Assembly: GCA_043814605.1 (NCBI GenBank)
Contig: JBDRJV010000047.1
Span: forward strand, 5,077-69,076
DNA from: Candidatus Omnitrophota bacterium
GTDB taxonomy: Bacteria; Omnitrophota; Gorgyraeia; B26-G9
Reading direction: 5' to 3'
Length of the DNA stretch: 64,000 bases
Shown here: one piece after another, positions 1 to 31,908 of the stretch
Layout: each line of letters opens with the position of its first letter
Numbering within the stretch: position 1 is the stretch's first letter
Position numbers and translations under genes: made by a program
Notes under the pieces: model-generated
The model's database searches: none
Seen by the model: only the letters and a program-made list of their open reading frames with translations
What the model was told of the DNA's origin: nothing

Positions 1-350
1 GTGGTGATTCATCAGAAAAAATGATTTCTTTATTAAATAGCAATAAAAATGTGGGGTTATTTCCTGAAGGTGGTTGTAGTTATGATGGAAAACTAAAAGC
101 TTTCAAAAATGGAGCAGCTCTTTTAGCTATGCGGACAGGGAGGCCCATTGTACCCTGCGCAATTGTAGGAACTTATGAATCATTACCCGTAGATGCAAGC
201 TTTCCCAAATTATTCTTACCAATTATAATAAAAATAGGCAAACCAATTTATCTTTTAAAAGAATTTGATGAGATTATTGAAGATATTGATTTACAGGAAG
301 GAATTTTAAAAGTGAGAAATTCAATAAAGGCTATGCTCAATGCAGGATAA
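1..350 (+). CDS. lysophospholipid/1-acyl-glycerol-3-phosphate acyltransferase (PlsC-like), 5'-truncated by window edge
   Basis: Reading frame is open from position 3. The FPEGG (PlsC-type FPEG) acyltransferase motif sits near the N-terminus of the visible part, so the gene starts upstream of the window. Confidence 0.65.
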   Translation, partial: GDSSEKMISLLNSNKNVGLFPEGGCSYDGKLKAFKNGAALLAMRTGRPIVPCAIVGTYESLPVDASFPKLFLPIIIKIGKPIYLLKEFDEIIEDIDLQEGILKVRNSIKAMLNAG

Positions 351-1908
351 AGAGCTGATTCATATAAACATATCTAAAATTATTCACGCCCAAAAATGGA
401 GAGTTATTCGCCTTTTAACTAAAATCCATGAATTCCCCGGTTATATCCCCTGCGTAAAAGAAGCCAGCTTAATTGAAAAATCCCGCCATAAAATGAAAAC
501 TAAATGGCGGATTGAAATAAATAAAATCCCGATTAATTGGATAGAAAACGATAATCTTGATTTAAGAAATAATACAATTGAATTCCAGGCAGAAACAGGA
601 GATTTAGAAGAATTCAGGGGGGAATGGAAATTTCAGGACCATCATCAAGGGACAAAAGTTTCGGTTAATGTTTATGCCAAAGTAGGTATTCCGGCAATAA
701 GAATTAAGGTTGAATCTCACATCGAAAAAATTCTCACGGAAAATTTTACCGCAATATTAAGGGCTATTGATAACCGGCTTGTTTCTACGCGTTATGCACG
801 GTTTAAAAAAGGGGAAACACAGAGTGTTGCCGGCTTTGGTATTGTGGGCCATCTTTATAATTTTTATCATTTGGAACAGTATATTAAAGTGCTTGATCCG
901 GATGTAAAAATGCCTTCTATGGAATTTTTAAGCCGTATTTTCCGGATTACGCCTTCTTTTAAACTTTTTGATATCCCGGAATTTAAATCTGTAACTGGTC
1001 ATATAGTTAACGGTTGTTTTATTATGTCCACATTTATTCCGGAGATGATGGAAAAAGATGTTTGGGGCGTATTTTCTAAGGTGGTTAAATCCTGCCGTAT
1101 TGCAGAAAAGCAGGGTGTGGGGATTGTGAGTTTAGCCGGGTTTTCCTCGATTGTTGAGGAAAAAATCGGTCAGGCAATCAGCACAGAAGTAGATGTGCCG
1201 GTAACTACAGGTAACACTTATACAGTAGCGATGATTAAGGAGAGTATTTTTAAAGCTGTACAATTTTTAGATTTAGATTTAAGTAAAGCTAATTTAACAA
1301 TTATCGGCGCTGCGGGAAATATTGGCAGCGGATGCGCCAGGATCTTTGCGGATAAAGTAAAAGAACTTATTTTGACTGGCAGAGCCAAAGATTCTCTAAA
1401 AGATTTACAGCAGAGAATTTTTAAAAAATATAAAAAAAGTGTTTCCATTTCTCATAATAGTGAATTATCCGTTCGCGATGCGGATATTGTAATTTGTGCG
1501 GCTAATACGATCACTTCGTTTGTAAAAATGGAATGGTTTAAACCCGGCGCTATTGTTTGTGATGTGGGGTATCCGAGGAATGTTGAACCGGCTGAGCAAA
1601 CCCGGGAAGATGTTTTTATTTTTAACGGAGGTCTTGCCAAATCTCCCACACCCGTTACTTTTCCTTTTGATATGGGATTGCCGGCAAAAGAAGTATTGTA
1701 CGGATGTTTTGCCGAGGCAATAATCTTAGCGCTTGAGAAGCGTTATGAAAACTTTAGCACGCGTGCCGGATACATAATCCCAGAAAAAGTTGAGGAGATC
1801 AGGGTTTTAGGCGAAAAACATGGATTTAGCGTAGCTGATTTTTACTGGTGTAATAAAAAAATTGATGATCAGGCGATTTTGAAAGTTAAACACGTAATTA
1901 TTTCTTAA
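340..1908 (+). CDS. SRPBCC (START/polyketide-cyclase-like) domain fused to long-chain acyl-ACP reductase (AAR) homolog
   Basis: C-terminal ~350 aa align block-by-block with cyanobacterial AAR as I recall it: GIVGHL..LEQ, TGHIVNGCFIxSTFIPEM, TTGNTYT, IIGAAGNIGSGCARIF (Rossmann), LILTGR, VCDVGYPRNV, YGCFAEAIILALE. The N-terminal ~150 aa look like an SRPBCC lipid-binding fold. The start overlaps the upstream gene. Confidence 0.7.
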   Translation: MQDKELIHINISKIIHAQKWRVIRLLTKIHEFPGYIPCVKEASLIEKSRHKMKTKWRIEINKIPINWIENDNLDLRNNTIEFQAETGDLEEFRGEWKFQDHHQGTKVSVNVYAKVGIPAIRIKVESHIEKILTENFTAILRAIDNRLVSTRYARFKKGETQSVAGFGIVGHLYNFYHLEQYIKVLDPDVKMPSMEFLSRIFRITPSFKLFDIPEFKSVTGHIVNGCFIMSTFIPEMMEKDVWGVFSKVVKSCRIAEKQGVGIVSLAGFSSIVEEKIGQAISTEVDVPVTTGNTYTVAMIKESIFKAVQFLDLDLSKANLTIIGAAGNIGSGCARIFADKVKELILTGRAKDSLKDLQQRIFKKYKKSVSISHNSELSVRDADIVICAANTITSFVKMEWFKPGAIVCDVGYPRNVEPAEQTREDVFIFNGGLAKSPTPVTFPFDMGLPAKEVLYGCFAEAIILALEKRYENFSTRAGYIIPEKVEEIRVLGEKHGFSVADFYWCNKKIDDQAILKVKHVIIS

Positions 1909-1941
1909 TAATTAATGTTTCTTTACTTTTAAGGATTGTTT

Positions 1942-2802
1942 ATGGCTAAACAAAAAGTAAGAGTAGCATTTATTACTTATCCTTCATTGTATTCTTTAAT
2001 AATGTTAAATTATTGGTTGAGGAAGCCAAAAACATACCCTGTTGTAGCTATTTTGCTTTCTGATTTTGACTTCAAAGTAAAAGGGAAAGAATTGCCATTT
2101 TTAGCTGTAGTGGCTCGTGTTATTAAACAATCAGGATGGCAATACGCTTTATATGAATTTTTTGTCACATATTTATCAGGGATTCTTATTAATTTGTGGA
2201 ATTTTTTTAGAGTAGTTATTGGTAAAGAAAGAAAAATATTTACCTTCGAACAACTTTCTAAAAAACATAGTATCCCTATTTTTAGAAGTAAAGATTTCGG
2301 AGATGAACAGACTCTGAATTTTTTAAAGAATGTGAATGCTACGTTAATTGTTTCTGGATATAACAACCAGATTATTAAGAAAAATTTAATAAAATTTCCT
2401 GAATTTGGATGTGTTGGTATCCATCCAGCTTTTCTACCAGATTTTCGTGGAGCTGACCCTGTTTTTGCCGCGCTCTATTCTAATGTCAAAGAAACAGGTG
2501 TTACGATACATTATATAGATGGTAAAATTGATAGCGGCCCAATTATTGCTCAAGATAAATCACGTATAAGGATGGAAGATTCTTTATTTTCTCTTAATAT
2601 TAGACTTTGGATGCATGGAGCAAAAATATTATCTTATGTAATAAAACAAATCAGCGAAGGCAAAGTAAACGCAAAAAAACAAAATTATCGATTAACTAAA
2701 TATAAATATGAATCATTTCCTGCAAAACAAAAGATCCGGGATTTTTTAAAAAGAAAAAAATCTTTATTTACCTTTAAAGATATACAAAATATATTAAAAT
2801 AA
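1942..2802 (+). CDS. formyltransferase-domain protein (Fmt/ArnA N-terminal-like) with hydrophobic N-terminal region
   Basis: Formyl_trans_N-like motifs (GIHPAFLPDFRGADP, HYIDGKIDSGPII). AAGGA RBS 7 nt before the ATG at 1942. The ORF track uses an upstream TTG at 1936. Confidence 0.6.
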   Translation: MAKQKVRVAFITYPSLYSLIMLNYWLRKPKTYPVVAILLSDFDFKVKGKELPFLAVVARVIKQSGWQYALYEFFVTYLSGILINLWNFFRVVIGKERKIFTFEQLSKKHSIPIFRSKDFGDEQTLNFLKNVNATLIVSGYNNQIIKKNLIKFPEFGCVGIHPAFLPDFRGADPVFAALYSNVKETGVTIHYIDGKIDSGPIIAQDKSRIRMEDSLFSLNIRLWMHGAKILSYVIKQISEGKVNAKKQNYRLTKYKYESFPAKQKIRDFLKRKKSLFTFKDIQNILK

Positions 2803-2813
2803 AAGGGGAGAAT

Positions 2814-4100
2814 ATGCAAAATAATGATTTTGATAAAGAGATAGATATAAACGACTTATCCTTAGCAAATTTTATGGGAATAAAAGATAAAGATCTTTTT
2901 AAAAAAGCTAAGATGTTTTTTCAATTTAGTGAGGGATTCAAGAAAAGAGGCTATTATACCTATAGACGTCCTTTAGCTAGTGCCTCAAGTAATCGTTCTC
3001 TCGTGCGCGATCCGATTACAGGTGAAGAAAAAGAAATGATCATGATGGGTTCAAATAATTATTTAGGCCTTGCCAGTCATCCTAAAGTTATTGAAGCAAC
3101 AGAAAAAGCATTAAGAAAATATGGATTAGGTAGTACTGGTGCTTCACTGCTTAATGGGACATTTGATGTGCATCAGGAACTTGAAGCTCGATTAGCAAAA
3201 CTAAAAGGATGCAAGGATGCGGTTTTATTTGGATCTGGGTATGCAGCAAATTTAGGAACATTGACTGCTATTCTGGGTGATGGAGATATTGTTATTAGTG
3301 ATGAGTTAAATCATGCTAGCATTATTGATGGATGCAGATTGAGTGGTGCAAATATCGAAATTTTTAACCATAACAACATGAAACAGTTAGAATCAATTTT
3401 AAAAAATACAAATGTAGGTAATAAGGGTAAACTTATTGTGGTTGATGGAGTTTTTAGTATGGATGGAGATATGGCAAATCTTCCTAAAATTGTTGAGCTA
3501 GCGCAAAAATATAATGCTTATACTATGGTTGATGAAGCCCATGCAACCGGAGTTGTTGGTTCCCAAGGAAAAGGTTCTTTAGAACATTATAATGTAAGAG
3601 GAAAGATAGATTTAATTGTTATTACACTGAGCAAAGCTTTAGGATGTTTTGGCGGAGCTGTATGTTGTAATGATGAAAAAGTTGCTGAATTTTTAAGATT
3701 TTTTTCAAGAAGTAATTTTTTTTCCACAAGTTTTCCTCCGGCGTTAGCAGCAGGGGCTATAGCGGCTATAGATATTTTAGAAAAAGAACCGGAACGGATA
3801 AAAAAATTATGGAGTAATATTAATTACATGTTAGAAAACTTAAAATCAATGGGATATAATACTGGGAATACTCAATCAGCTATTATTCCGGTAATTATTG
3901 GAGATGATCAAAAATTACGAGATATGAGTGTGGATTTTCAAAAAGCAAATATTTATTTAGGAGCAATCCCTTACCCGGCTGTACCAAAAGGAGAGGCTCG
4001 GTTTAGACTTACAGTGATGGCAATCCATACTCAGGAAGACTTAAATCAAACCTTAGATGTTTTTAAAACAGTAGGGAAAAAGTTTGGAGTTATAAAATAA
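2814..4100 (+). CDS. alpha-oxoamine synthase family PLP enzyme (serine palmitoyltransferase / KBL / BioF-like)
   Basis: GSNNYLGL, SGYAANLG, DEAHATG and the PLP-lysine motif TLSKALG. The ~85-aa stretch before the GSNNYLGL motif is longer than in BioF and more SPT-like. RBS GGGGAG upstream. Confidence 0.8.
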   Translation: MQNNDFDKEIDINDLSLANFMGIKDKDLFKKAKMFFQFSEGFKKRGYYTYRRPLASASSNRSLVRDPITGEEKEMIMMGSNNYLGLASHPKVIEATEKALRKYGLGSTGASLLNGTFDVHQELEARLAKLKGCKDAVLFGSGYAANLGTLTAILGDGDIVISDELNHASIIDGCRLSGANIEIFNHNNMKQLESILKNTNVGNKGKLIVVDGVFSMDGDMANLPKIVELAQKYNAYTMVDEAHATGVVGSQGKGSLEHYNVRGKIDLIVITLSKALGCFGGAVCCNDEKVAEFLRFFSRSNFFSTSFPPALAAGAIAAIDILEKEPERIKKLWSNINYMLENLKSMGYNTGNTQSAIIPVIIGDDQKLRDMSVDFQKANIYLGAIPYPAVPKGEARFRLTVMAIHTQEDLNQTLDVFKTVGKKFGVIK

Positions 4101-4103
4101 AAT

Positions 4104-6233
4104 ATGAGTAATAATTTTTTAAGCATTTATGCGCTTCCTTATTTACTTGTAGCAATTTTATTTTTATTTCTTGGGGTTTTTGTTTTTTTGCATAACAAAA
4201 AATCTCTGACAAATCTTTCTTACCTTTTTGTTTGTATAAGTAGTTTTTTATGGCTTTTAGGTAATTACTTAATTATTTCCAGCACAAATGAGAACAGTGC
4301 ATTTTTTTGGGCTAGATTTGCTTATTTTGGAATAACTTTAATCCCTCCGAGTATGTATTTTTTCTCAACAGCTTGGTTGGATTTATATAAAGAAAAAAAG
4401 AAAATAGTAATTTTAAATTATATTTTGGGGTCATGCTTAATACTACTGTTTTTATTTACAGACTTATTTATAACCGGAGTTTATTATTATTTCTTTGGGT
4501 ATTTTTCTAGATTAAGTAAATTCAGTATAATATATTTAATTTGCTTTTTTTTAATTTCCGGAGCATTTTTCTGGAATTTATTTAAAGGTTATAAGAAAGA
4601 AAAAACTGCAATAAAAAAAATTCAAATCAAAAGCGTTTTAATTGCTTTTGTTATTGCGTTTATTGGTGCTGTAGATTTTTGGGTAACTTTTGGCCTAGAA
4701 ATTTATCCAATTAGTTTTATTACGATGACTTTATTTATTGTCATTGTTGCTCATTCGATTATTTATTACAAATTAATGGATATTGAAACTGTACTGCATA
4801 AAACAGCATTATGGTTATTATCTTTCTCTTTTATTGTGATTCCTGTTTTTCTAATATATCGAGGGATCTATTTTTATTTAGAAAAATCTATCATGCTACA
4901 ATTCATCTTTTGGACTGCTTCTTTCGTAATGTTCTCATTTTACCTAAGAGTTATACAGCCGAAAATTGATCATTTTTTTCAAAGGCGCGAGTATAATTTA
5001 CGAGAAACACTAAATAAATTTGTTGAAGAATTGGTTTATCTAAAAGGACTAGATAACCTTATTTCTCAAATAGAAAATACAATCAGAGATACTTTGTATC
5101 CTCAGACGGTTGATATTTTTATTTATAGCGAATTAGATGAAAGGTATATAGCTTTAAATAACAATACTCAAAAAAATAATAGAGAATTAATAGATGAAGA
5201 TAACAATTTTTTAACTTGGTTAAGAAAGAATAATAAAATTGTGTATAAAGAGTTTATAGATATGGATCCACAATTTGTATGGATTAAAGAAGATGCTAAA
5301 AATTATTTTAATTATAACAGTGCTGTTGTAGTAATCCCCTTGATATTAAATAATAATTTATTAGGAATTATTAATTTAGGGAAAAAACAAAATTTAATGC
5401 GCTATAAATCAGCTGATTTTGATTTCTTGAACGTGTTAAGAAATGAATCAGTTATTGCAATATCTAATTCACTTCTTTATGAATATACGGAAGAGCAGGT
5501 TAAACAGCGTTCTGAAGAATTAATTAAAGTACAAAAGCAATTGGTACAGGCAGAAAAATTGGCAACTGTAGGTACACTAGCTGGAGGAGTAGCACATGAA
5601 ATTAATAATCCTCTTGCAGCAATACTCACTAATGTGCAGCTATTATTGGATTCAGATGATATAAAAAATAAAGATGATAAAGAATCTCTGGAATTAATTG
5701 AAGAAGCAACTAAGCGCTGCCGCGAAATTGTAAAAAAACTTATGGTGTATGCACGTAAGCCATTAGCCCGAGAAGAAATAAGCAAAGTAGATTTAAATGA
5801 AGTTATTGGTAATGTATTATCTTTTATTAAATATCAGCTAGGGCAGGAAGATATTAAAATAGTTACTAATCTCCAAAAAAATAATTATTTTGTTACAGGG
5901 AATAAAAATGAACTTGAACATGTAATTACTAATATTGTTTTAAACGCAAAAGATGCGATTAAAAAAATAAAAAAAAGTGGTATTATAGAAATATCTTTAA
6001 CTAAAAGTGAAGAATTTATAAAAATTCAGATAAAAGACGAAGGTGTGGGAATGTCCAGCGAAGTCAGGCCAAAAATATTTGACCCGTTTTTTACCACTAA
6101 AGATGTAGGTAAGGGCTTAGGGCTTGGCCTTTCTATTTGCCAGGCAATTATCGAAAGACATAATGGCAAAATAGAGGTTGAGTCAGAAATAAACAAAGGG
6201 GCTGTTTTTACGGTTCAACTGCCGATTGCATAA
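4104..6233 (+). CDS. sensor histidine kinase, multi-TM N-terminal sensor + HisKA + HATPase_c
   Basis: About 8 hydrophobic helices at the N-terminus. H-box HEINNPLAAIL. G-boxes DEGVGM and GKGLGLGLSIC. Starts 4 nt after the AOS stop. Confidence 0.85.
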   Translation: MSNNFLSIYALPYLLVAILFLFLGVFVFLHNKKSLTNLSYLFVCISSFLWLLGNYLIISSTNENSAFFWARFAYFGITLIPPSMYFFSTAWLDLYKEKKKIVILNYILGSCLILLFLFTDLFITGVYYYFFGYFSRLSKFSIIYLICFFLISGAFFWNLFKGYKKEKTAIKKIQIKSVLIAFVIAFIGAVDFWVTFGLEIYPISFITMTLFIVIVAHSIIYYKLMDIETVLHKTALWLLSFSFIVIPVFLIYRGIYFYLEKSIMLQFIFWTASFVMFSFYLRVIQPKIDHFFQRREYNLRETLNKFVEELVYLKGLDNLISQIENTIRDTLYPQTVDIFIYSELDERYIALNNNTQKNNRELIDEDNNFLTWLRKNNKIVYKEFIDMDPQFVWIKEDAKNYFNYNSAVVVIPLILNNNLLGIINLGKKQNLMRYKSADFDFLNVLRNESVIAISNSLLYEYTEEQVKQRSEELIKVQKQLVQAEKLATVGTLAGGVAHEINNPLAAILTNVQLLLDSDDIKNKDDKESLELIEEATKRCREIVKKLMVYARKPLAREEISKVDLNEVIGNVLSFIKYQLGQEDIKIVTNLQKNNYFVTGNKNELEHVITNIVLNAKDAIKKIKKSGIIEISLTKSEEFIKIQIKDEGVGMSSEVRPKIFDPFFTTKDVGKGLGLGLSICQAIIERHNGKIEVESEINKGAVFTVQLPIA

Positions 6234-6345
6234 ATAAAAGTTATCAAGTTAGAAGATTAATGGTTTAATCTTCGCAATCTATTGTTAATCGTTGTAATTA
6301 GGTATAATCTGGTTTATAACGCAAGATTATACCAGGAGGTTAGTT

Positions 6346-6726
6346 ATGGCAAAAAATATTTTAATTATTGATGATGAGGCATTAGTAACCAAATCTTTAC
6401 GCAAACTACTTGAGAAAAAGGGTTATAATGTAACTATTGCCCAAAGCGGCAAGGAAGCATTAAAACTTGTGCAGGAGAAAGAATTTAATTTGATAATTTC
6501 TGATGTCCGGATGCCGGAACTTGACGGGGTGGAAACAATAAAAGCAATCCGTGATTATGTTAAAGAACAGGGTAAAAAACCCATAAAGGAAATTCTGATA
6601 ACCGGATATGCAGATGAGCAAAAGTATAAAGACGCCGTTGACTTAAAAGTTGCACATTATATTTACAAACCGTTTGATACAGAGGAGCTGGTTGAGGCAG
6701 TCGAAGACAATATTGGTTCTGCTTAA
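6346..6726 (+). CDS. response regulator, receiver domain only
   Basis: CheY-like fold motifs IIDDE, phospho-Asp context ISDVRMPELDG, and conserved K in YKPF. No output domain. Confidence 0.85.
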   Translation: MAKNILIIDDEALVTKSLRKLLEKKGYNVTIAQSGKEALKLVQEKEFNLIISDVRMPELDGVETIKAIRDYVKEQGKKPIKEILITGYADEQKYKDAVDLKVAHYIYKPFDTEELVEAVEDNIGSA

Positions 6727-6770
6727 GCACAGTAGCTACTCTCTACTTAAAAAAAGAAGGAGCAGAAGAA

Positions 6771-8012
6771 GTGCGCGACAATAGAAACGCCGTAATCACC
6801 GGAGTGGGAGTAATTGCTCCTAATGGGATTGGCAAGGAAAAATATTGGAAAGCGTTGGAAAATGGAGTTAGCGGGATAAGACCAGCTACGCTTTTTGATA
6901 CCACTTATTTTAAAAGTAAACTGGTGGGAGAGTGTACGGATTTTGACCCGGTGGAATTTTTAGGCCCTAAAGGCCACCGTACTCTGGATCGCGCTACCAA
7001 AATGATTGCTTCCGCGGCAAAGCTGGCGCTTGATGACGCCAAGCTTGAAATCACAGAAGAAAATACTGATGATATTGGTGTGGTAACAGCCACAACGTTA
7101 TCGGTTGCTTTTGATATTGCAGAGTTTACCAAAGAAGTTGTACAGGACGGGCCAAATATGGCTAACCCGGCTTTGTTTCCGCCCACAACCATGAATTTCC
7201 CCTCAAGTCACATTGCGATCCGTTATAAGATAAAAGGGTTTAACACAACTATTTCCACAGGATTTTCCGCTGGCCTGGATGCTTTGAAATACGCGATTGA
7301 TTTTATCAAGCTTGGCCGGGCCAAGGTGGTTTTAGTTAGCGGGGTAGAAAGCGCGTCATTTTCTAATTTTGTCGGGTTTTATAAAGCGGGTTTTTTAGCT
7401 GGACGTAAAGGTGAAGAAATATCCTGCCCGTTTGATAAAAGGCATAACGGGATTATTTTAGGTGAAGGCTCAACTGTGATTGTTGTTGAAGATGAAGAGC
7501 ACGCCAAGCAAAGAAAAGCTAATATTTATGCAAAGGTTCTGGCAGTAAAAACATTTTTTGATGCTTTTCGCATTACTGAATACGACCCAAAAGCCCGCGG
7601 CTTAAGGCAAAGCATGCGTAAAGCTTTGGATGAATCCAATACTAGCGAAGCAGAGATTGATTTTATCTGTTCCTGCGCAAATTCCGTTCCCATGCAGGAT
7701 GTTATTGAAACTCAGGCCATAAAAGAAGTGTTTAATATTTACGCTGATAATCTAGCGGTAAGCGGGATAAAATCGATGCTGGGTGAAAGCTGCAGCGCTG
7801 CCGGAGGATTGCAAATAGCCGCGGCAATCGGCGCGATGCAGAACAAATTTATTCCGCCAACTATAAATTATAAAGAGCCGGATCCGGAATGTAATCTTGA
7901 TTATGTAGCCAACAAATCCCGCAAGCAGGATGTGAACAATGTCATGATCAATAATTTCGGGCCGGGAGGAAATAATACAACCGCGATAATCACGAAGTAT
8001 CGTGATTATTAG
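6771..8012 (+). CDS. beta-ketoacyl synthase-like protein lacking the Cys-His-His catalytic triad (chain-length-factor-like)
   Basis: Thiolase/KS fold aligned to the downstream KS. Active-site Cys replaced by Phe (ISTGFSAGL vs NACAAGN), His1 by Cys (CSCANSV vs CAHGTGT), His2 by Glu (SMLGESCS vs SMLGHTMG). GTG start with GAAGGAGC RBS. Confidence 0.8.
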   Translation: MRDNRNAVITGVGVIAPNGIGKEKYWKALENGVSGIRPATLFDTTYFKSKLVGECTDFDPVEFLGPKGHRTLDRATKMIASAAKLALDDAKLEITEENTDDIGVVTATTLSVAFDIAEFTKEVVQDGPNMANPALFPPTTMNFPSSHIAIRYKIKGFNTTISTGFSAGLDALKYAIDFIKLGRAKVVLVSGVESASFSNFVGFYKAGFLAGRKGEEISCPFDKRHNGIILGEGSTVIVVEDEEHAKQRKANIYAKVLAVKTFFDAFRITEYDPKARGLRQSMRKALDESNTSEAEIDFICSCANSVPMQDVIETQAIKEVFNIYADNLAVSGIKSMLGESCSAAGGLQIAAAIGAMQNKFIPPTINYKEPDPECNLDYVANKSRKQDVNNVMINNFGPGGNNTTAIITKYRDY

Positions 8013-8606
8013 CAAATAAAAAAAGCTTTTATAAGGAAACCATGAACTTTAAAATACGTTCATGGTGACAGGAAGGCAAGAAGCCAGATCCGCCAAGCAT
8101 GTTCTTCGAAGTTTACAGTGGCGAGATTTAATCCGCCAAGTGCATTCAAAGAAGAGAACAGTGGCAAGGTTGGAAGTAAATAATAGGACACAGATTTTCG
8201 CAGATTAACAGGATTAATAAAAAAGGATTATGATAATCTAGTTATCTATTTGTAATAGATAACACTAATTCTGAAGAATTGATAAAAAACAAAAAATAAT
8301 TTTTGTTTTGTTAACGATCTCTCAGAATTATATTCCGCAAAATGCGGAACTAGATTAATATTATAGAACTAAGTTAATATCATTAAACCACAATAAACAT
8401 TGTTGTTTGATTGCGTAATAACAGTTTAAATCTGAGTAAAGCAGTGTTTATCTGTGGGCTATGAAGGTGTTGTATTTTTCCTGTGCAACCTGAGTCAGGC
8501 ATAGGAGATTTCCTGGGCTCCTTAGAGGAAAGATAAAATAATCATAATAAATAGTAATGCTTCATATTTAACTTGAAACATTAAATATGCAGGGTATAAT
8601 AAGATC

Positions 8607-9833
8607 ATGATAAAGCCGCGAATATTAGCTAATGTGCTTAAAAGAGCAATCAAAAGTTTCCCGGCGGTTGTTGTTACCGGGCCTCGGCAATCCGGAAAAA
8701 CAACTTTATTGAAAACATTGTATTCAAAAACACATCGTTATGTTTCTTTGGAAGATCCGGATGTGAGAATGCGGGCAAAAGAGGACCCGGTGAGTTTTTT
8801 AGCGCAAAATAATGCGCCGGTAATTATTGATGAAATACAATATATTCCGGAGCTGCTTTCATATATAAAAACAAAAATTGATCAAAAAAGAAAACCCGGA
8901 CAATGGTTGTTTACGGGGTCTCAGAATTTTGTTTTAATGCAGGGAGTGAGCCAGTCTCTGGCGGGAAGAGCTGCGGTTGTTTCTCTTTTACCATTTTCTT
9001 ATGCGGAGCGGATAAACCAGGCGGGCAAAGCGCAGGATATTAATAACTGGGTGAAGATGCTGAATGTTGAGCAAATTTGTTCAAAAAAAGAATCTTTGAG
9101 TGAACTTATTTTAAGGGGGAATTATCCGGAGATTGCCAGTAAAAAAACAGTTGACCGGCAATTGTGGTGCGGTTCGTATATCTCTACTTACTTAGAAAGA
9201 GATGTGAGAAATTTGTCGGCCATTGGGGATTTAAGCCAGTTTGAAAGATTCTTAAAACTATGCGCGACAAGAACCGGACAAATTTTAAATCTTTCCGAAA
9301 TGGCAAAAGAAATCGGGGTGAGTGTTCCTACGGCAAAAAGGTGGATTTCAATCCTCGAAACAGGATATCAAATATATTTGCTGTATCCATATTATAAAAA
9401 CATCGGTAAACGTTTAATAAAAAGCCCAAAGCTGTATTTTTGTGATACCGCTTTGGCAGCATATTTGTTGGGAATCAATGATCGTGAAGTGATCTTAAAT
9501 AGCCCAAATTTTGGAAATATTTTTGAAACTATGATTATAAATGATTTTGTTAAACGTTTTTTGCATTTTGGGCAGATGCCTTCAATGTATTACTTGCGCA
9601 GCCGGGATGGATTAGAAATAGATTTGGTGATAGAGGTTAATCAGCAATTGCATTTATTTGAAATAAAGAGCGCGATGAATATTACTCAAAAACATGCAAG
9701 CGCGTTGATAAGACTAAAAGCAGATAAAAAATTAGCAATTAAAACTGCGGCGATAATTTCCCGGTCCAAAGATAATTATTTGCTCAGTAAAGGAGTGGTA
9801 AATTATAATTGGAAGAATATTCTTTCTTTTTGA
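8607..9833 (+). CDS. AAA+ ATPase with C-terminal DUF4143 / PD-(D/E)xK-like domain (COG1373 family)
   Basis: Walker A GPRQSGKTT and Walker B VIIDEIQ. C-terminal D..EID..EIK motif. Paralog of the ORFs at 12498 and 25186. Confidence 0.8.
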   Translation: MIKPRILANVLKRAIKSFPAVVVTGPRQSGKTTLLKTLYSKTHRYVSLEDPDVRMRAKEDPVSFLAQNNAPVIIDEIQYIPELLSYIKTKIDQKRKPGQWLFTGSQNFVLMQGVSQSLAGRAAVVSLLPFSYAERINQAGKAQDINNWVKMLNVEQICSKKESLSELILRGNYPEIASKKTVDRQLWCGSYISTYLERDVRNLSAIGDLSQFERFLKLCATRTGQILNLSEMAKEIGVSVPTAKRWISILETGYQIYLLYPYYKNIGKRLIKSPKLYFCDTALAAYLLGINDREVILNSPNFGNIFETMIINDFVKRFLHFGQMPSMYYLRSRDGLEIDLVIEVNQQLHLFEIKSAMNITQKHASALIRLKADKKLAIKTAAIISRSKDNYLLSKGVVNYNWKNILSF

Positions 9834-9890
9834 GATCTTTCGCAATAATCACGAAATACCTGGATAAGTAGCGAGTAGCTAGTAGAGAGA

Positions 9891-10256
9891 GTGGAAAAGC
9901 AGAAGATAAAAAATGTAGAAGATTTTCTTGTTTATCAAAAATCAACAAAATTATTTGATGATTTTTTGGAAAAAGATTTACCGGTTTTAAAAGCAGATTT
10001 TGCTGGGAGTACATTAGCCAGAAACCAGTTAAGATGTTTAGATTCTATTTGCGCTAATATGGAAGAAGGCTATGAACGCAAGCATGGGAAAGAGATCAAG
10101 AATTTTTTTAGAATGTCCAAAGGCTCAGCTGGCGAAGCAAGAGGAAGATATAAACGGTTGAAGAGAGTATTACCGGAAAAAGTTATAGAAATTAGAGTAG
10201 CAGCTTTAAATGAGATTAGAGCCATGCTTGAATCTTTGACTAAGAAATGGGAATAG
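9891..10256 (+). CDS. four-helix-bundle protein (23S rRNA intervening-sequence protein family, TIGR02436-like)
   Basis: About 120 aa with the EG..R...G S.GEA.G pattern (NMEEGYERKHG...SKGSAGEARG) typical of this family. GTG start. Confidence 0.55.
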   Translation: MEKQKIKNVEDFLVYQKSTKLFDDFLEKDLPVLKADFAGSTLARNQLRCLDSICANMEEGYERKHGKEIKNFFRMSKGSAGEARGRYKRLKRVLPEKVIEIRVAALNEIRAMLESLTKKWE

Positions 10257-10352
10257 TTTTCTCTATTGCTTTTTAGTTTTAACAAAATATGAATTATGTA
10301 GTTTTGAAATAGATTGTAGAGATAAGTATGTTATAGAGAATTTTTGGTTTTT

Positions 10353-10420
10353 TCTCTCTACTAGTTGAAAACATTAATATATTTTCAGTGAAATCCCGCT
10401 AAGGCGGGGCTACTCGCTAC
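10353..10420 (+). repeat. REP-like dispersed palindromic element, copy 1
   Basis: ctctctact-agttgaaaacattaatatattttcag-tgaaatcccgctaaggcggggctactcgctac. Contains the CCCGC-TAAG-GCGGG hairpin. Confidence 0.8.
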
Positions 10421-10602
10421 TATTTACTTAAAAAAATAAGTTTAATTATTTTGTAATGAATAAAATATGAATGGTGAGTTTTGCAAGTGAACTGTATATA
10501 TAAGCGTATTTTAGAGGAATTGAGTATTTTTCTCTCTACTTGCTACTCGCTTGTGCCCGTAAGGGTACTACTCTCTACTTAAAAAAAGAAGGAGCTAAAA
10601 AC

Positions 10603-11820
10603 GTGCGCAACAACAGAAGAGTCGTAGTTACAGGAATTGGGATTGTTTCGGCATTAGGCATTGGCCGGGATAAGTTTTGGGATAATATTAAAAAAGGTAA
10701 GTCAGGGATATCTAAGATTACCTCAATAGATACATCTGCTTATAAATGCCATTATGGCGGAGAAGTAAAAGATTTTAATCCTGAAGATTTTATCCCGAAA
10801 AGAAGAATAAAGTTTTTAGGCAAAACATCACAGTTGGCAATTGCCGCGGCTTATTTAGCTTTACAAGATTCCGGTATTCCTTTAAAGCGAATCCCCAAAG
10901 AATCAATGGGTGTGATCATGGGAACAACTATTGGGGAGAAAGCTATAGAAGAGTTAGCTGCACAATGGGCCAAAGGCGGATTAAAAGAAATAGACAGAAA
11001 AAAACTTTTCCAGGCTGCTGCCAATAATATTCCGGCTAATGTAGCTATACAGTTTAAAGCCATGGGATTAAATTGTTTAATCCCCAATGCCTGTGCTGCG
11101 GGTAATTATGCAATTGGTTATGGATATGATTTAATAAGGAATAAAGATTTAAATTTTGCTTTAGTCGGTGGAAGTGAATCGTTTTCACCTTTAGCCTATG
11201 CCGGGTTTCAAAGGCTTTATGCTATGTCTCCGGATAAATGCAGTCCTTTTGATAAAAATAGAAAAGGCATGATGCTGGGAGAAGGTTCTGGAATATTATT
11301 TTTAGAATCTTTAGAATCAGCTTTAAAACGCAAAGTAAAGATTTACGCGGAAATTTTAGGTTACGGCTTATCCTGCGATGCTTATCATGCTACAGCGCCT
11401 GACCCCAAAGGCATTGCTCGAGTTATGCAAAAGGCGTTAGATCAAGCGAATATTAGTTATAAAGAGGTTGATTATGTTTGCGCGCACGGTACAGGTACTC
11501 CGGCTAATGATAAAGCCGAAAGCGCGGCAGTCAAGGAAGTTTTCAAAGAGAGGCATAAAGAAGTATTAGTTAGTTCAATAAAATCAATGCTCGGGCATAC
11601 AATGGGTGCGTCTTCAGCGATTGCAGGAGCAGCTTGTTGCTTAGGGATAAAAGAAGGAATTGTGCCGCCGACCATAAACTTTGAAACTCCGGATCCGGAA
11701 TGTGATATAGACTGCGTGCCGAATAAAGCGCGTAAAAAAGATCTGAATGTTGTTTTAAATAACGGCTTTGCTTTTGGCGGAAATAATTGCTGCGTGGCGT
11801 TTGGGAAATATAGCGGATAG
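10603..11820 (+). CDS. beta-ketoacyl-ACP synthase (FabF/KAS II-like), catalytic triad intact
   Basis: NACAAGNYAIG (Cys), CAHGTGT (His), SMLGHTMG (His). GTG start at 10603 with the same upstream leader (tactctctacttaaaaaaagaaggagc) as the 6771 gene. The ORF track extends to an upstream TTG at 10540, which I do not favour. Confidence 0.85.
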   Translation: MRNNRRVVVTGIGIVSALGIGRDKFWDNIKKGKSGISKITSIDTSAYKCHYGGEVKDFNPEDFIPKRRIKFLGKTSQLAIAAAYLALQDSGIPLKRIPKESMGVIMGTTIGEKAIEELAAQWAKGGLKEIDRKKLFQAAANNIPANVAIQFKAMGLNCLIPNACAAGNYAIGYGYDLIRNKDLNFALVGGSESFSPLAYAGFQRLYAMSPDKCSPFDKNRKGMMLGEGSGILFLESLESALKRKVKIYAEILGYGLSCDAYHATAPDPKGIARVMQKALDQANISYKEVDYVCAHGTGTPANDKAESAAVKEVFKERHKEVLVSSIKSMLGHTMGASSAIAGAACCLGIKEGIVPPTINFETPDPECDIDCVPNKARKKDLNVVLNNGFAFGGNNCCVAFGKYSG

Positions 11821-12121: not shown

Positions 12122-12230
12122 TTTTATACATCCGCGGCCTAAAACCGCGCCCATTTATGGCGCGGATAAAAGGAGGCCGCTTGAGTATTCCACCTCAGGA
12201 ACCACGGGCTTTAGCCCGTGGGGGTTCCAT
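12122..12230 (+). repeat. ~110-bp GC-rich structured element, copy A
   Basis: Nested stems GCGGCC/GGCCGC and CCGCGCC/GGCGCGG, plus hairpin GGAACCACGGGC-TTTA-GCCCGTGGGGGTTCC. Sharply GC-rich against the AT-rich background. Confidence 0.7.
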
Positions 12231-12497
12231 TAAAAAGCAATAACATTAATATCTGCAGTTAGTTGCATTATTAAAAAAGATAATTTTTCAAAAACAAAAA
12301 ATGACAAATTTAAAGTGATACTTTAAAATTATCAATAATTTATACAAATTAGTATTGACAGTACTGATTTGTATAAGTTTGGATGCGTAATAAGGATAAT
12401 AATATATTGTAAGGAAAAACATGACTTGACAGCAATATATTATGCCTGCTATAATTTATATAAAATTAATAATAACCCTGCTAAAATTTAGAAAAAA

Positions 12498-13745
12498 ATG
12501 TATATACATAGAGATCTCGAAAAAAAAATTATTAAATACTTAGATAGTCCGGAAATTTTGGCGATCATTGGCCCTCGGCAGAGCGGGAAGACTACGCTAA
12601 TTAAAAATGTTCTAAAAACTCTTAAAAACGCTGTATACATAGATTTTGAAGACAGAGAAGTTCTGGAATTATTTAATAGTGATATAAAGTCTTTTTATAA
12701 GTTATATGTTAAAGATTCTAAATATTTATTTGTTGACGAATTTCAATACGCGAAAGAAGGCGGCAAAAAGTTAAAGTATTTATATGATACTTTTAAACTA
12801 AAAATTATTATTTCCGGCTCTTCCAGCCTTGATCTTACAAAGCAGGCGATAAAATATTTAGTGGGGAGAGTTTTTGTTTTTTACCTTTATCCTTTTAGTT
12901 TCAAGGAATATCTGGATTTTCGCGATAAGTCATGTTATGAGAATATTTATTTAGATATCCATGAAACTGTCAAAGAATATTTTTTATACAAGAAAAAATC
13001 TATTCCGCTTATTTCTCCAGAAATGATAAAAAAAATTAATAAATATTATCATGAATATGCGATTTTTGGCGGATACCCCCGTGTAGTTCTGGCTAAAGGT
13101 ATTGAAGAAAAAATAACCGTTCTGAAAAATATTTACAACACTTACTTTTTAAGAGAAATAAGGGATATCCTACAGCTGAGTACAGAAGTGGAATTACAAA
13201 AGCTGATCAAATGCCTAGCGCTTCAGACAGGCAGTATAGTCTCATATAAAGAATTAAGCCAAACAACAAGTTTAAATTATAATAACCTGTTAAAACATTT
13301 AAATATCCTTGAGAATACTTTTGTGATAAAAAAACTTCTGCCGTTTTTTCGTAATAAAAGAACAGAAATCGCCAAAGCTCCGAAAATTTATTTTGTGGAT
13401 AATGGTTTGAGAAATATGTCGGTAGGTAATTTTCAGGACATGGGAGAACGAGTTGATAGAGGCAGTATTAATGAGAATTTTATTGCCGGAGAATTATTAA
13501 AGCAGGAATTTGCCATAAATTACTGGAGAACAAAATCTAACGCGGAAGTTGATTTTATCTTGGAAAAACAGGGCAAACACAGCGCGATTGAAGTAAAATC
13601 CAGATTGTCTTCGGATAAAATCGGTAGAGCATTAATCGCTTTTAAAGAAAAATATCCTGATTTTAGAATAACTATTGTTTCTGAAAATTATTATAGTTTT
13701 AATAAAAAAGAGCAGGTTTTTTTTCTGCCGTTATTTTTTGTTTAA
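12498..13745 (+). CDS. AAA+ ATPase with C-terminal DUF4143 / PD-(D/E)xK-like domain (COG1373 family)
   Basis: GPRQSGKTT, FVDEFQ, C-terminal EVDFIL...AIEVKS. Confidence 0.8.
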   Translation: MYIHRDLEKKIIKYLDSPEILAIIGPRQSGKTTLIKNVLKTLKNAVYIDFEDREVLELFNSDIKSFYKLYVKDSKYLFVDEFQYAKEGGKKLKYLYDTFKLKIIISGSSSLDLTKQAIKYLVGRVFVFYLYPFSFKEYLDFRDKSCYENIYLDIHETVKEYFLYKKKSIPLISPEMIKKINKYYHEYAIFGGYPRVVLAKGIEEKITVLKNIYNTYFLREIRDILQLSTEVELQKLIKCLALQTGSIVSYKELSQTTSLNYNNLLKHLNILENTFVIKKLLPFFRNKRTEIAKAPKIYFVDNGLRNMSVGNFQDMGERVDRGSINENFIAGELLKQEFAINYWRTKSNAEVDFILEKQGKHSAIEVKSRLSSDKIGRALIAFKEKYPDFRITIVSENYYSFNKKEQVFFLPLFFV

Positions 13746-13876
13746 AAAAGAAATAATTGCTGTGTCGCGTTTGGGAAATATAAATAATGTTGTGTAATGT
13801 TTAATGTGTTATGTGTAATGAATTTTTTATGCATCAAGCTCCAGGCTGCAAGCTTCAGGGGTTTTAGCTTGCGACT

Positions 13877-13934
13877 TGTTGAGAACATTAATATATTTTT
13901 AGCGAAATCCCGCTAAGGCGGGGCTACTCGCTAC
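13877..13934 (+). repeat. REP-like element, copy 2 (preceded by the gcatcaagctccaggctgcaagc module from 13831)
   Basis: Near-identical to copy 1. Confidence 0.8.
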
Positions 13935-13950
13935 TTTTAAAAGAGGCTTC

Positions 13951-15033
13951 ATGAACAAAAAACGGACAATATTTTTAACCGGTGCGACGGGATTAATCGC
14001 TTCCTATTTATTGAAATTACTTTTAGAAAACGGCAATAAAGTTTATGCTCTAGCTAGAGGTAAAAAAGATCAGTCTGCTAAAGATCGAGTAATTGACATG
14101 TTGAAATTCTGGCAGGCGGATATCTCGCCGGATTTATTTAAAAATTTAACTGTTGTTGAAGGAGATATTACTTATTCAGATTTAGTTAAGCTGGATGCAA
14201 AAGATATTTTAAATAAGCTTTATAATGAAATTGAAATAATTTTTCACAGCGCAGCATTAGCAGAATTAAAAGTTTTGTATGAAAAGATAAAAAAGATAAA
14301 TGTTGACGGCACCAGAAATGTTCTGGATTTTGCCCTAAAATGCAAAAAATTAAAAAAAGTAAATCATATCAGTACAGCATATGTTGTAGGAGATAAAAAC
14401 GGCATAGAATTTAGCGAAGATATGCTTGACGTCGGCCAGGGATTTCATAATACATACGAGCAAACTAAGTTTGAAGCAGAAGTTTTATGTCATGAATATA
14501 TAGATAACAAAGGATTAAATATCTCTATTTTTCGTCCAAGCATGGTAATGGGTGATTCAATAGAAGGAAAAACCAATAATTTTAGATTATTTTATGAGCC
14601 GCTGCATTTCTTTTCTAAAGAAATTTACGAAGCTTTCCCGGTAAATCCTAATTATACGCAAAACTTGATTAATAATGATGTTGTGGGAAAAGCGATTTTT
14701 GCATTAGGAGAAATAGAAAATATTGCAGTATATCATATTGTTTCTCCAAATCATATTACAATGCAGTTTTTTATGCAGACTGCAGCAGAACATTTTGGAT
14801 ACAAATTGCCAAAGCTTATCCCTATTGAAAAGTTTAATTTTAATCAATGGACAGCATCACAAAAACTTTTAGCAGAACCATTTATCCCATATTTTAATTT
14901 TAATACAAAATTTTTGTCTAAAAAAACAGGTGAAATTTTTAATAAAGTTAAACTTAAACTTCCAGAAATAAAAAAAGAGAGTTTAATTAAAATATTTAAT
15001 TTTTGCAATAAGGCTGATTTTATAAAAAATTAA
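13951..15033 (+). CDS. NAD(P)-binding thioester/fatty-acyl reductase-like protein (NAD_binding_4 / extended SDR)
   Basis: LTGATGLIASYL Rossmann motif and YEQTK (YxxxK). Architecture resembles terminal reductase domains and fatty acyl-CoA reductases. Could alternatively be a sugar epimerase. Confidence 0.6.
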   Translation: MNKKRTIFLTGATGLIASYLLKLLLENGNKVYALARGKKDQSAKDRVIDMLKFWQADISPDLFKNLTVVEGDITYSDLVKLDAKDILNKLYNEIEIIFHSAALAELKVLYEKIKKINVDGTRNVLDFALKCKKLKKVNHISTAYVVGDKNGIEFSEDMLDVGQGFHNTYEQTKFEAEVLCHEYIDNKGLNISIFRPSMVMGDSIEGKTNNFRLFYEPLHFFSKEIYEAFPVNPNYTQNLINNDVVGKAIFALGEIENIAVYHIVSPNHITMQFFMQTAAEHFGYKLPKLIPIEKFNFNQWTASQKLLAEPFIPYFNFNTKFLSKKTGEIFNKVKLKLPEIKKESLIKIFNFCNKADFIKN

Positions 15034-20274: not shown

Positions 20275-20376
20275 GAACTCCCACGGGCTAAACATGGTTC
20301 CTGGGGTGGAATACTCAAGCGGCATCCTTTTATCCGCGCCATAAATGGGCGCGGTTTTAGGCCGCGGATGTATAAA
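20275..20376 (-). repeat. ~110-bp GC-rich structured element, copy B (inverted; 60 nt downstream of the transposase stop)
   Basis: Reverse complement matches copy A at ~93% identity. Confidence 0.7.
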
Positions 20377-20421
20377 ATGCTAAAATTCAAGACCTGACCC
20401 CATTACGCTTTATTCGCAGAA

Positions 20422-21438: not shown

Positions 21439-21452
21439 GATTGGAATAAATA

Positions 21453-23684: not shown

Positions 23685-23884
23685 AATTTAATATTGTGTA
23701 GTGTTTAATGTGTTATGTGTCATGAATTTTTATGCAGCAAGCTCCAGGCTGCAAGCTTCAGGGGTTTTAGCTTGCGACTTGAAGCTTGAGGCTTGTGGCT
23801 TATATTTTTTCATTAAACAATAAACTTTACACATTACACAAAAATTTACGGATATTATATTGATTTATACACGGAGGTTAAAAG

Positions 23885-26334: not shown

Positions 26335-26422
26335 AAACAAAAGAGAAACAAATAATTCAAATAATAATATTGATTTAACGCGGGCAATTCATGAATTGCC
26401 CCTTATATGCGGAGGAATGTGC

Positions 26423-30069: not shown

Positions 30070-30092
30070 ATATCTCCATTTTATGTTTAAAT

Positions 30093-31906: not shown

Positions 31907-31908
31907 TT

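Follow-up and report, generated by a model that had tools for sequence, protein, structure and literature searches.

We describe an operon that joins enzymes of acyl-chain chemistry to membrane sensor kinases. It was found in 64,000 nucleotides of contig JBDRJV010000047.1 (assembly GCA_043814605.1, positions 5,077 to 69,076) from a Candidatus Omnitrophota bacterium. This whole stretch is called the window below, and its positions 1–28,500 form a near-continuous run of plus-strand genes. Gene families were assigned by Pfam and NCBIfam scans of the window open reading frames (ORFs), and missing genes were sought with tblastn. An earlier reading made from the letters alone (the sequence-only reading) had proposed a dedicated pathway to a modified long-chain lipid, built from an acyltransferase, a reductase fusion, a formyltransferase-like protein, a condensing enzyme and a ketosynthase pair, and wired to a membrane sensor kinase. 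All ORFs it named are present and intact on the plus strand (the first is cut by the window start), and the profile scans bear out its family assignments. An Rfam scan of the whole window for riboswitches and other RNA elements gave no match.

The first gene (21–350, +) supplies only the C-terminal 109 amino acids of a PlsC/LPLAT-type acyltransferase (Acyltransferase PF01553, 42 bits), since its start lies before the window. It is 53% identical to the acyltransferase of the related locus L001, the HX4D motif is present in 45 of 46 orthologues, and its 3′ end overlaps the next gene by 11 nt. That gene (340–1908, +) encodes a lipid-binding SRPBCC domain (Polyketide_cyc, 40 bits) fused to a domain resembling acyl-ACP reductase (AAR; ACP, acyl carrier protein), and the product is predicted to be a thioester-to-aldehyde reductase. 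With phmmer, residues 166–497 of the fusion align to residues 2–335 of the S. elongatus AAR (6JZQ), that is, to a full-length AAR domain. In YGCFAEA the catalytic Cys294 is kept, with a conservation of at least 90% among 15 orthologues; the NADPH-binding glycine motif GAAGNIGSG is present as well. Full-length alignment and catalytic Cys are what the fusion shares with cyanobacterial AAR, the partner of aldehyde-deformylating oxygenase (ADO). It differs from it by the N-terminal SRPBCC domain, by a score of 152.1 bits against the AAR model TIGR04058 (far under the equivalog cutoff of 449.7), by having a PlsC-type acyltransferase as partner and by the lack of ADO: a Pfam scan of ORFs with 100 aa or more, covering most of the window, found no such ferritin-like protein. 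The N-terminal half of the PigE model scores 157 bits against the fusion, on par with the AAR model. Hundreds of homologues of the fusion exist at 55–61% identity and, where named, come from Candidatus Omnitrophota. Many relatives (L008, L012, L014, L017, L022, L024, L026, L035) also carry a second, stand-alone AAR paralogue of ~330–360 aa, 27–32% identical to the fusion and placed either before the acyltransferase or after SRPBCC-AAR (e.g. L012 8419–9411, L024 11583–12680); the window has none.

Next comes a formyltransferase (FT)-like protein (1936–2802, +; Formyl_trans_N, 83.6 bits) with a hydrophobic N-terminal insertion and without the C-terminal domain of Fmt; the true fmt gene lies elsewhere in the window (53454–54413). 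Its clade is small and specific to Omnitrophota, with ~15 close homologues before scores fall to the Fmt/PurN level. In the clade alignment His163 and Asp199 are invariant, and both are kept in the window copy. Of the six contexts seen, four have an amine-forming enzyme next to the gene, namely the α-oxoamine synthase (in the window and in L065) or a class-III aminotransferase (in L067, ordered aminotransferase–FT–kinase, and in the P0245 contig, ordered acyltransferase–AAR–aminotransferase–FT–kinase). It follows a short-chain dehydrogenase/reductase (SDR) gene in L004 and L037. In L063, L066 and L069 a GNAT gene takes the corresponding place beside the amine-forming enzyme.

The α-oxoamine synthase (AOS; 2814–4100, +; Aminotran_1_2, PF00155, 213 bits) belongs to the pyridoxal phosphate (PLP) enzymes that condense an amino acid with an acyl thioester, and its translation contains the PLP-lysine motif TLSKAL together with NHAS and DEAH. 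It had been called SPT-like (SPT, serine palmitoyltransferase), a label that the scores do not support: BioF, Kbl and SPT models score about equally, and every curated cutoff is missed. We obtained 423 bits against TIGR01825 (cutoff 535), 415 against Kbl (460), 413.9 against BioF (426.45), and 395, 331 and 286 against the three NCBIfam SPT models (640, 500 and 670, respectively). The top PDB matches (Thermus AOS, Sphingobacterium SPT and Kbl) are likewise similar to one another at ~300 bits, with PDB CqsA reaching only ~120 bits. A plain BioF or Kbl reading was rejected on gene context and missed cutoffs, as neither bioA/B/D nor tdh occurs in the 64-kb window. The earlier conclusion that this is no fab, biotin or sphingolipid operon holds on the same grounds, including the check it had proposed, a bioA/D/B context. 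About ten homologues from Omnitrophota are 63–67% identical to the window AOS, and more distant ones, at 52–57%, include fusions to PilZ.

Only 4 nt past the AOS stop codon starts HK1 (4104–6233, +; HisKA_7TM, HisKA, HATPase_c), a polytopic 7TM sensor histidine kinase with ~9 hydrophobic segments within residues 1–281. It is followed by a CheY-like response regulator consisting of a receiver domain only (6346–6726, +; Response_reg 98.7 bits). Further on lie the two ketosynthase (KS) homologues, and the proposal of a KS-type protein paired with one of chain-length factor (CLF) type is confirmed. We call the protein at 6771–8012 (+) CLF-like because it lacks the Cys-His-His triad, the triad positions holding Phe/Ala-Asn/Glu (STGFSAG, SCANSV, GESCS). 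The partner at 10540–11820 (+), whose true start codon probably lies downstream of 10540, has the triad intact (PNACAAG, AHGTGT, GHTMG) and is predicted to be an active ketosynthase. Unlike in the contiguous set described by the sequence-only reading, the two genes are separated by ~2.5 kb with a DUF4143 AAA-ATPase gene and a 23S_rRNA_IVP gene.

After the KS gene the run continues with a stand-alone thioester-reductase-like SDR (13951–15033, +; NAD_binding_4 180 bits, TIGR01746 144.5 bits), which has homologues within the same loci of L023, L024, L031, L035 and L036. A nitroreductase-family flavoprotein (15048–15647, +; PF00881, 94 bits) with an orthologue at the same place in L045 and a CrtI/phytoene-desaturase-like flavoenzyme (15644–17110, +; TIGR02734, 173 bits, below cutoff) follow. 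Then come the second 7TM kinase, HK2 (17110–19329, +; HisKA_7TM, HisKA, HATPase_c; 61% identical to HK2 of L045), and an HK2 paralogue (21453–23684, +), which arose with the duplication of the CrtI-like and kinase genes, as seen from Pfam, its translation and the direct repeats D1 and D2, and has a centre near-identical to that of HK2. Two response regulators, an RpfG-like one (23885–24922, +) and a second one (26396–27472, +), each combine a receiver (REC) with an HD-GYP domain (Response_reg and HD_5). Both retain the HD and HHE..GYP motifs (residues 209/262/270 and 225/278/286) and are predicted to be cyclic di-GMP (c-di-GMP) phosphodiesterases. The tail of kinase, two HD-GYP regulators and PNP phosphorylase is shared with L003, L013 and L040, and a second 7TM kinase with one or two REC-HD-GYP regulators lies further downstream in the window and in ~9 related loci.

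To see how far this arrangement is conserved, we collected 59 species-representative loci and several metagenomic ones and labelled their ORFs by BLAST against proteins of the window and of its relatives. The gene order that recurs begins with HTH_17, acyltransferase and SRPBCC-AAR; a variable cassette, the HisKA_7TM kinase and the receiver come next, then a variable block, a second kinase, two REC-HD-GYP regulators and finally a PNP_UDP phosphorylase. A HisKA_7TM kinase gene lies on the same strand no more than 4.6 kb past the reductase in all 28 loci with at least 5 kb of downstream sequence, and the receiver is the next gene after it in 22 of these. The acyltransferase is directly upstream of the reductase in 40 of 54 loci, KS genes appear further on in 8 of 20, and AOS was found in none of the 59 species-representative loci. 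In relatives without a cassette the reductase and kinase genes are separated by –31 to +24 nt. Because the order of the core genes recurs in dozens of species-level relatives, the grouping is not due to chance. The wiring to a membrane sensor kinase suggested for the window is thus real and conserved, with the kinase in 28/28 loci and gaps or overlaps of a few bases. The neighbourhood check that had been proposed gave a divided answer: the core of acyltransferase, AAR and kinase is constant, and the KS module is found only in the 8 of 20 loci. What did not survive is the idea of a single fixed pathway, as acyltransferase, SRPBCC-AAR, kinase and receiver make up a core found across the phylum, FT with AOS is one of ~10 alternative cassettes, and the KS module is an accessory. 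The sequence-only reading had named neither the homology to anammox Cluster I nor the HD-GYP regulators and the inserted ATPase genes.

Cassettes were counted in 44 loci, window included. Nothing stands between reductase and kinase in 22 of them, and eight have a GMC oxidoreductase. An NAD-dependent epimerase/SDR (with or without an FT-like gene), a B12-binding radical SAM protein (L005, L014, L022) and a second stand-alone AAR paralogue are each found in three. Single loci have a thioester reductase, a LuxD-like Acyl_transf_2 fused to a methyltransferase, a class-III aminotransferase with a 379-aa GNAT, two small ORFs of no assigned family (L044) and, in the window, FT-like with AOS. Aminotransferase with FT and GNAT with AOS are further cassette forms. 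For the cassette aminotransferase the best match is to the C-terminal half of the PigE model (481 bits), and together with the relatives' AAR the enzyme covers both halves of this protein of prodigiosin biosynthesis; on this ground we regard AAR plus aminotransferase as PigE in split form, leading from thioester via aldehyde to amine. In the simplest reading, cassette enzymes modify an acyl chain at its head group.

We aligned 44 AAR proteins and their downstream kinases and regressed pairwise identity in each region on a phylogeny proxy and a shared-cassette term. With the identity of AAR and of the catalytic core controlled for, sharing a cassette adds 8 to 9 identity points in the transmembrane region of HK1 (0 of 1000–2000 permutations reach this) and 17 points when none–none pairs are left out. 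In the HK1 linker the effect is 3 to 13 points, reached by 19 of 2000 permutations in the first run and by 2 and 0 of 1000 in the second. For the HK1 catalytic core and for the SRPBCC domain it is ~0 and not significant. Cassette and sensor domain travel together, which fits ligand–receptor matching.

A polytopic kinase adjoins the gene of this AOS clade or lies no more than two genes away in 6/6 contexts. The order is FT, AOS, kinase in the window (4-nt gap); SRPBCC-AAR, PilZ, AOS, an ORF of unknown function and two 7TM kinases in L064, with one gene between AOS and kinase; FT, PilZ, AOS and an adjacent hybrid 7TM kinase in L065; and a FadL-type channel, GNAT, AOS and an adjacent hybrid 7TM kinase in L066. 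In L068 a TIGR04551-like protein and a PilZ-AOS fusion precede an adjacent GAF kinase with ~10 hydrophobic segments and a hybrid kinase, and in L069 AOS is followed by a TIGR04551-like protein and GNAT, then by a GAF kinase of the L068 kind and a hybrid kinase (two genes between). Two of the six contexts, L069 (whose homologue is labelled Dadabacteria) and L068, are probably from outside Omnitrophota. The link is specific to this clade, since a 51%-identical AOS of Firmicutes has no kinase neighbour of this sort. Genes for PilZ, GNAT and outer-membrane channels often accompany these contexts. PilZ, a c-di-GMP receptor, is fused to the clade AOS or encoded directly upstream of it in P0133, P0136, L068 (7001–8662), L064 (9544–9927) and L065 (2431–2868), and this arrangement would imply control of the condensing enzyme by c-di-GMP. 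Genes of outer-membrane channel type stand beside AOS–kinase or acyltransferase–AAR modules in L068 (5199–6998), L069 (8457–10121), L066 (7460–8839) and L004 (7713–9068). They are TIGR04551-like (with weak Alginate_exp similarity), FadL/Toluene_X or Alginate_exp, and are possible conduits for a hydrophobic product.

The KS/CLF pair almost certainly has its closest structural counterparts in anammox bacteria. The best PDB match of the KS is chain B of 9S5H (468 bits at 53% identity; the ishigamide KS Iga11 reaches 345 bits and FabF ~318), and that of the CLF is chain C of the same entry (353 bits, 44% identity; all others reach at most 255 bits). In chain C, Val takes the place of the triad Cys, and Asn and Glu those of the His residues; 9S5I includes an ACP chain. 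The amxFabF2/amxFabFmut heterodimer of anammox bacteria, which prefers C6–C8 acyl chains, has been solved alone and with ACP (bioRxiv 10.64898/2026.05.19.726425). We infer that 9S5H is this heterodimer and 9S5I its complex with ACP; the identification rests on sequence features, because the preprint text gives no PDB codes and we found no paper with the code. Of the CLF tunnel residues named in the preprint, Phe135 is kept and Val139 is replaced by Thr in the window CLF. The dedicated acyl-chain pathway proposed for the locus is supported; its "long-chain" product is unproven, the closest characterised KS/CLF preferring C6–C8 chains. Within the phylum, the window CLF and KS are 58.5% and 70% identical to KSa and KSb of L001, respectively. 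There, the dehydratase (DH) and ACP encoded between CLF and KS best match the solved structures of amxFabZ and amxACP (amxFabZ in 7QV0 and 8AYB–8AYI, amxACP also in 7QV0; PMC10139942).

Anammox Cluster I (kuste3603–3608) encodes ACP, FabZ, FabF, a non-canonical FabF, a phytoene-desaturase homologue (PDH) and a B12 radical SAM protein (PMC4790861), and has been described as unique to ladderane producers (bioRxiv 10.64898/2026.05.19.726425). In the relatives the Omnitrophota module comprises a ketoreductase (KR), CLF, ACP, DH, KS, a further KS and a CrtI-like protein, which makes it a Cluster I homologue without the radical SAM gene. The likeness lies in the KS and CLF identities, in the same triad loss in CLF, in the matches of the relatives' ACP and DH, and in the CrtI-like gene that comes after; such genes end the KS module in L001, L004 and L055, and the one in the window is the same kind of gene as PDH at the level of gene family. 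The differences are that the window module belongs to another phylum and lies inside a two-component operon with acyltransferase, AAR and head-group cassette, and that the Omnitrophota module adds KR and, in relatives, a third KS, with no radical SAM gene found in the window by Pfam scans. Membership in an aryl-polyene cluster, considered because the relatives' dehydratases weakly match ApeI/ApeP, was rejected, as DH, ACP, KS and CLF all match anammox proteins better.

Several features of the window interrupt the pathway genes. The DUF4143 AAA-ATPase gene (8607–9833, +) and the 23S_rRNA_IVP four-helix-bundle gene (9891–10256, +), both identified by Pfam, occupy the spot of ACP and DH in relatives, whose order is CLF–ACP–DH–KS; the genes at 8607–10256 are insertions and not pathway members. 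A second DUF4143 AAA-ATPase gene (12498–13745, +; Pfam) follows the KS gene, and a third lies between both HD-GYP regulators (25186–26334); the three DUF4143/AAA_14 genes are paralogues. Sigma-70-like promoter sites precede two of the ATPase genes, at 8573–8600 (11/12) and 12426–12455 (12/12, with TG); it should be noted that over the whole window the promoter and terminator scans gave counts equal to chance. On either side of the second ATPase insertion stand 33 nt of the KS 3′ end (11780–11812 and 13750–13782, 94% identical), a repetition that suggests that the DUF4143 genes are mobile or recombination-borne.

The CrtI-like and 7TM kinase genes are themselves part of a segmental duplication (15644–19329 and 20371–23684) with an IS200-like Y1 transposase gene (19368–20213, +; Pfam) in between. 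The CrtI-like duplicate (20422–21438, +) is truncated at its 5′ end and lacks the first ~140 residues; tblastn aligned it to CrtI residues 140–478 at 39% identity. The duplicated kinases are near-identical in their centres and diverged in their sensor and catalytic ends, as in a mosaic or after gene conversion. The arms of an 83-nt inverted repeat (98% complementary) lie in the gap upstream of the second DUF4143 gene (12122–12204) and beside the Y1 transposase gene (20295–20377); the repeat may be associated with the transposase. Four copies of a 31-nt hairpin element, GAAATCCCGCTAAGGCGGGGCTACTCGCTAC, are present (0 expected), at 10390–10420, 13904–13934 and 27556–27586 (+) and at 36414–36444 (–). 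All copies are intergenic and just upstream of genes (KS, thioester reductase, PNP and near the RHS gene), and longer flanks of 79–95 nt are shared by 10346–10424 and 13860–13938 and by 13785–13878 and 23689–23781. The element, which has no Rfam match, is REP-like or regulatory.

Beyond the operon, a minus-strand block at 28637–32948 that is not present in the syntenic locus L003 contains a split HipA-type toxin (HipA_C 28637–29557, Couple_hipA 29544–29873), a fourth HisKA_7TM kinase with receiver (30290–32271) and an HTH-cupin regulator (32394–32948). It is followed by a Peptidase_S74/fn3 pair (33953–36417), by a 2143-aa SpvB/TcdB/RHS-repeat protein that is Tc-toxin-like (36590–43021; a 2520-aa homologue lies at L001 1–5314, ~4 kb upstream of the L001 operon), and by a second IS200-like Y1 transposase, fused to a DnaA C-terminal helix-turn-helix domain (43640–44641). 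Genes for an MGDG-synthase-like glycosyltransferase and a lipid A biosynthesis acyltransferase come next (45758–47766). As the MGDG-synthase-like gene of L003 directly follows the tail of kinase, two HD-GYP regulators and PNP, ~17 kb (28.6–45.7 kb) have been inserted in the window relative to L003.

Our tentative reading, to which we give less than even weight, is that this lineage has its own version of an operon which occurs throughout the phylum and which makes and perceives a fatty-acyl-derived amphiphile. A Cluster-I-type KS/CLF pair would build or extend an acyl chain of short to medium length, working with an ACP and a ketoreductase that are probably encoded just upstream of the window. 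AOS would condense the acyl thioester with an amino acid to an α-amino-ketone, and the FT-like protein would cap the amine, so that the product might be an N-formylated amino-ketone or amino-alcohol. SRPBCC-AAR, the stand-alone thioester reductase or both could give aldehyde or alcohol forms, and the acyltransferase would esterify a hydroxyl group or load the chain. Being hydrophobic, the product would enter the membrane and be read there by the transmembrane domain of the adjacent kinase or kinases, HK1 and HK2, which would signal through the CheY-like receiver and the HD-GYP regulators to c-di-GMP turnover. In function such a circuit would resemble CqsA/CqsS, LqsA/LqsS or RpfF/RpfC/RpfG, built of unrelated parts.

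In α-hydroxyketone quorum sensing, by CqsA/CqsS of Vibrio and LqsA/LqsR/LqsS of Legionella, the gene of an AOS-family enzyme likewise stands beside those of a polytopic kinase and a receiver, and the window AOS is adjacent to the same kinds of genes. However, this AOS is below the CqsA cutoff, the locus adds AAR, acyltransferase, FT and KS/CLF, and the kinase has a HisKA_7TM sensor, with no CqsS model among the best 25 NCBIfam matches listed. The Rpf system of diffusible signal factor (DSF) consists of the synthase RpfF, the membrane kinase RpfC and the REC-HD-GYP regulator RpfG; common to it and to our locus are fatty-acid-derived chemistry beside a membrane kinase and HD-GYP output. It differs in that neither the window nor the loci of relatives show a crotonase-type RpfF (enoyl-CoA hydratase family), and in that the window kinases are non-hybrid, there are two kinases and two HD-GYP regulators, and the relatives' AOS is linked to PilZ. 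All parts of the locus come from known families (AAR/PigE, AOS, formyltransferase, anammox-type KS/CLF and HD-GYP), and its proteins belong to neither the CqsA nor the RpfF family.

A number of observations weigh against a lipid-signal circuit. The C-terminus of AAR also gains 2 to 3 identity points with a shared cassette (reached by 3–5 of 1000 permutations), the co-variation weakens the further a region lies from the cassette, and co-transfer or recombination of the cassette together with the 5′ end of the adjacent kinase gene could give the same co-variation. ACP, KR, DH and the third KS are absent from the 64 kb, as judged by tblastn with the relatives' proteins and a listing of small ORFs. 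In L045, the locus of closest layout (KR, ACP, acyltransferase, AAR, kinase, receiver, CLF, KS, methyltransferase, nitroreductase, kinase), KR and ACP are upstream of the acyltransferase, so in our case they may lie just upstream of the window, and we do not read their lack as decay because that position would fall outside it. Two ATPase genes with promoter-like sites of their own break up the operon, no exporter is encoded in the window, no response regulator of the locus has a DNA-binding output, and AOS is no orthologue of CqsA (NF005526, 212.1 bits against a cutoff of 428). We know of no ligand for any HisKA_7TM kinase. The window FT-like protein has Gly (GGT, codon 2416–2418) at the catalytic Asn161, which is present in all other aligned sequences (13 clade members and three Fmt/PurN-type proteins). 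It may therefore be inactive or chemically altered, and the idea that it would N-formylate a lipid amine is weakened here. Finally, the core is near-universal in the phylum, and quorum-sensing systems are usually patchy; the PlsC-type acyltransferase fits less well with a diffusible signal than with a glycerolipid or aminolipid of the membrane.

These last points lead to the possibility, which we consider nearly as likely as the lipid signal, though again short of probable, that the locus is an envelope-lipid pathway under two-component control. Its product would be a structural lipid (a glycerolipid with an ether or alcohol linkage, an aminolipid of OlsB/OlsA-like type or, resembling ceramide, an N-acylated or N-formylated amino-alcohol), and the kinases would sense the state of the membrane, as DesK does beside des, and adjust the envelope via c-di-GMP. 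The presence of the core in essentially every related species is what one expects of a housekeeping function, the HX4D-bearing acyltransferase is translationally coupled to the reductase, and the conserved flank contains genes for MGDG synthase and lipid A acyltransferase. Bacterial ceramide synthesis by Spt, bCerS and CerR uses the AOS, GNAT and SDR families, and these three enzyme families are also represented here by AOS with a ~375-aa GNAT (L066, L069) and by SDR cassettes (L004). With the ceramide and OlsB/OlsA pathways the locus would share a logic of AOS condensation, N-acylation (possibly N-formylation here), SDR reduction and O-acylation by the PlsC family; it differs from them in the missed Spt cutoffs, in the lack of GNAT and SDR in the window, in a formyltransferase that replaces the acyltransferase, and in genes that are tied to kinases. 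It is more difficult to reconcile a bulk lipid with head-group enzymes that vary among close relatives while the kinase stays, and with a sensor domain that co-varies with the cassette. The SPT equivalog cutoffs are missed, no flippase or transporter is encoded, and the C6–C8 chains preferred by the nearest characterised KS/CLF are short for a bilayer lipid.

An improbable alternative is that the KS/CLF, CrtI-like and reductase genes are a counterpart of Cluster I for ladderane-related or otherwise unusual fatty acids, making a desaturated or cyclised chain (including alcohols for ether lipids), with the kinases as mere neighbours. KS, CLF, ACP and DH of the module each have an anammox protein as best solved-structure match, the CrtI-like gene ends the module as PDH does in kuste3603–3608 (PMC4790861), B12 radical SAM cassettes exist in three relatives, and antiSMASH "ladderane" calls in Omnitrophota metagenome-assembled genomes had been noted earlier and left unanalysed (PMC9902471). 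Yet the window has no radical SAM gene, the KS module is found in fewer than half of the relatives (8/20) while the core of acyltransferase, AAR and kinase is constant, ladderanes are reported only from anammox bacteria (PMC9902471; bioRxiv 10.64898/2026.05.19.726425), and E. coli made no new fatty acid when kuste3603–3608 were expressed in it (PMC4790861). Very improbable is a chance or decayed association of housekeeping genes, with AOS as a plain BioF or Kbl, FT as a folate enzyme and KS as a spare FabF in a relic locus. The BioF score is just 12 bits below its cutoff (414 against 426), the FT-like catalytic Asn is lost, and the three DUF4143 ATPase genes, together with an IS200-like transposase, the truncated copy of CrtI and repeat elements, are signs of recent rearrangement. 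This explanation is nevertheless largely refuted by synteny, as AOS–kinase and AAR–kinase adjacency holds in every context examined. Besides, bioA/B/D and tdh are missing, the true fmt is elsewhere, the biosynthetic ORFs are of full length and keep their catalytic motifs except for the Asn-to-Gly change, and the triad loss of CLF matches its orthologues and so is conserved, not a sign of decay.

Bacteria of the Omnitrophota are uncultured; most of them are ultra-small, and they show host-dependent traits (PMC10066038). Our literature search found no report on their lipids or signalling chemistry, nor any account of the SRPBCC-AAR fusion, of its coupling to HisKA_7TM kinases, of the cassette system or of the AOS–kinase module; the two papers it gave that mention HisKA_7TM survey kinases of archaea and eukaryotes. 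The signal reading can be carried further to a more doubtful proposal, namely that polytopic kinases of Omnitrophota and of at least Dadabacteria would perceive fatty-amine, amino-ketone or aldehyde signals made by the bacteria themselves, with head groups diversified by exchangeable cassettes (AOS or PigE-like aminotransferase with a formyl or GNAT transferase, oxidoreductases, radical SAM) and with c-di-GMP output. Such circuits would, if this is true, form a new family of lipid autoinducer systems that spans phyla, and the proposal supplies a candidate ligand class for the HisKA_7TM sensor domain. The pairing of amine-forming enzymes with N-formyl- or N-acyltransferases predicts new small lipid amides. 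Homologues of the amxFabF2/amxFabFmut-type KS/CLF, of amxACP and of amxFabZ in a sister phylum of the PVC group, in another genomic setting, constrain the function of Cluster I. A corollary of the cross-phylum proposal is that the anammox set of KS/CLF, ACP, FabZ and PDH would be a general PVC-group module for short acyl chains and not specific to ladderanes. The Omnitrophota proteins also offer comparative, possibly more tractable material for the long-standing ladderane problem. For the bacteria themselves, the phylum-wide operon provides a concrete hypothesis of how Omnitrophota may sense themselves, their envelope or their hosts.

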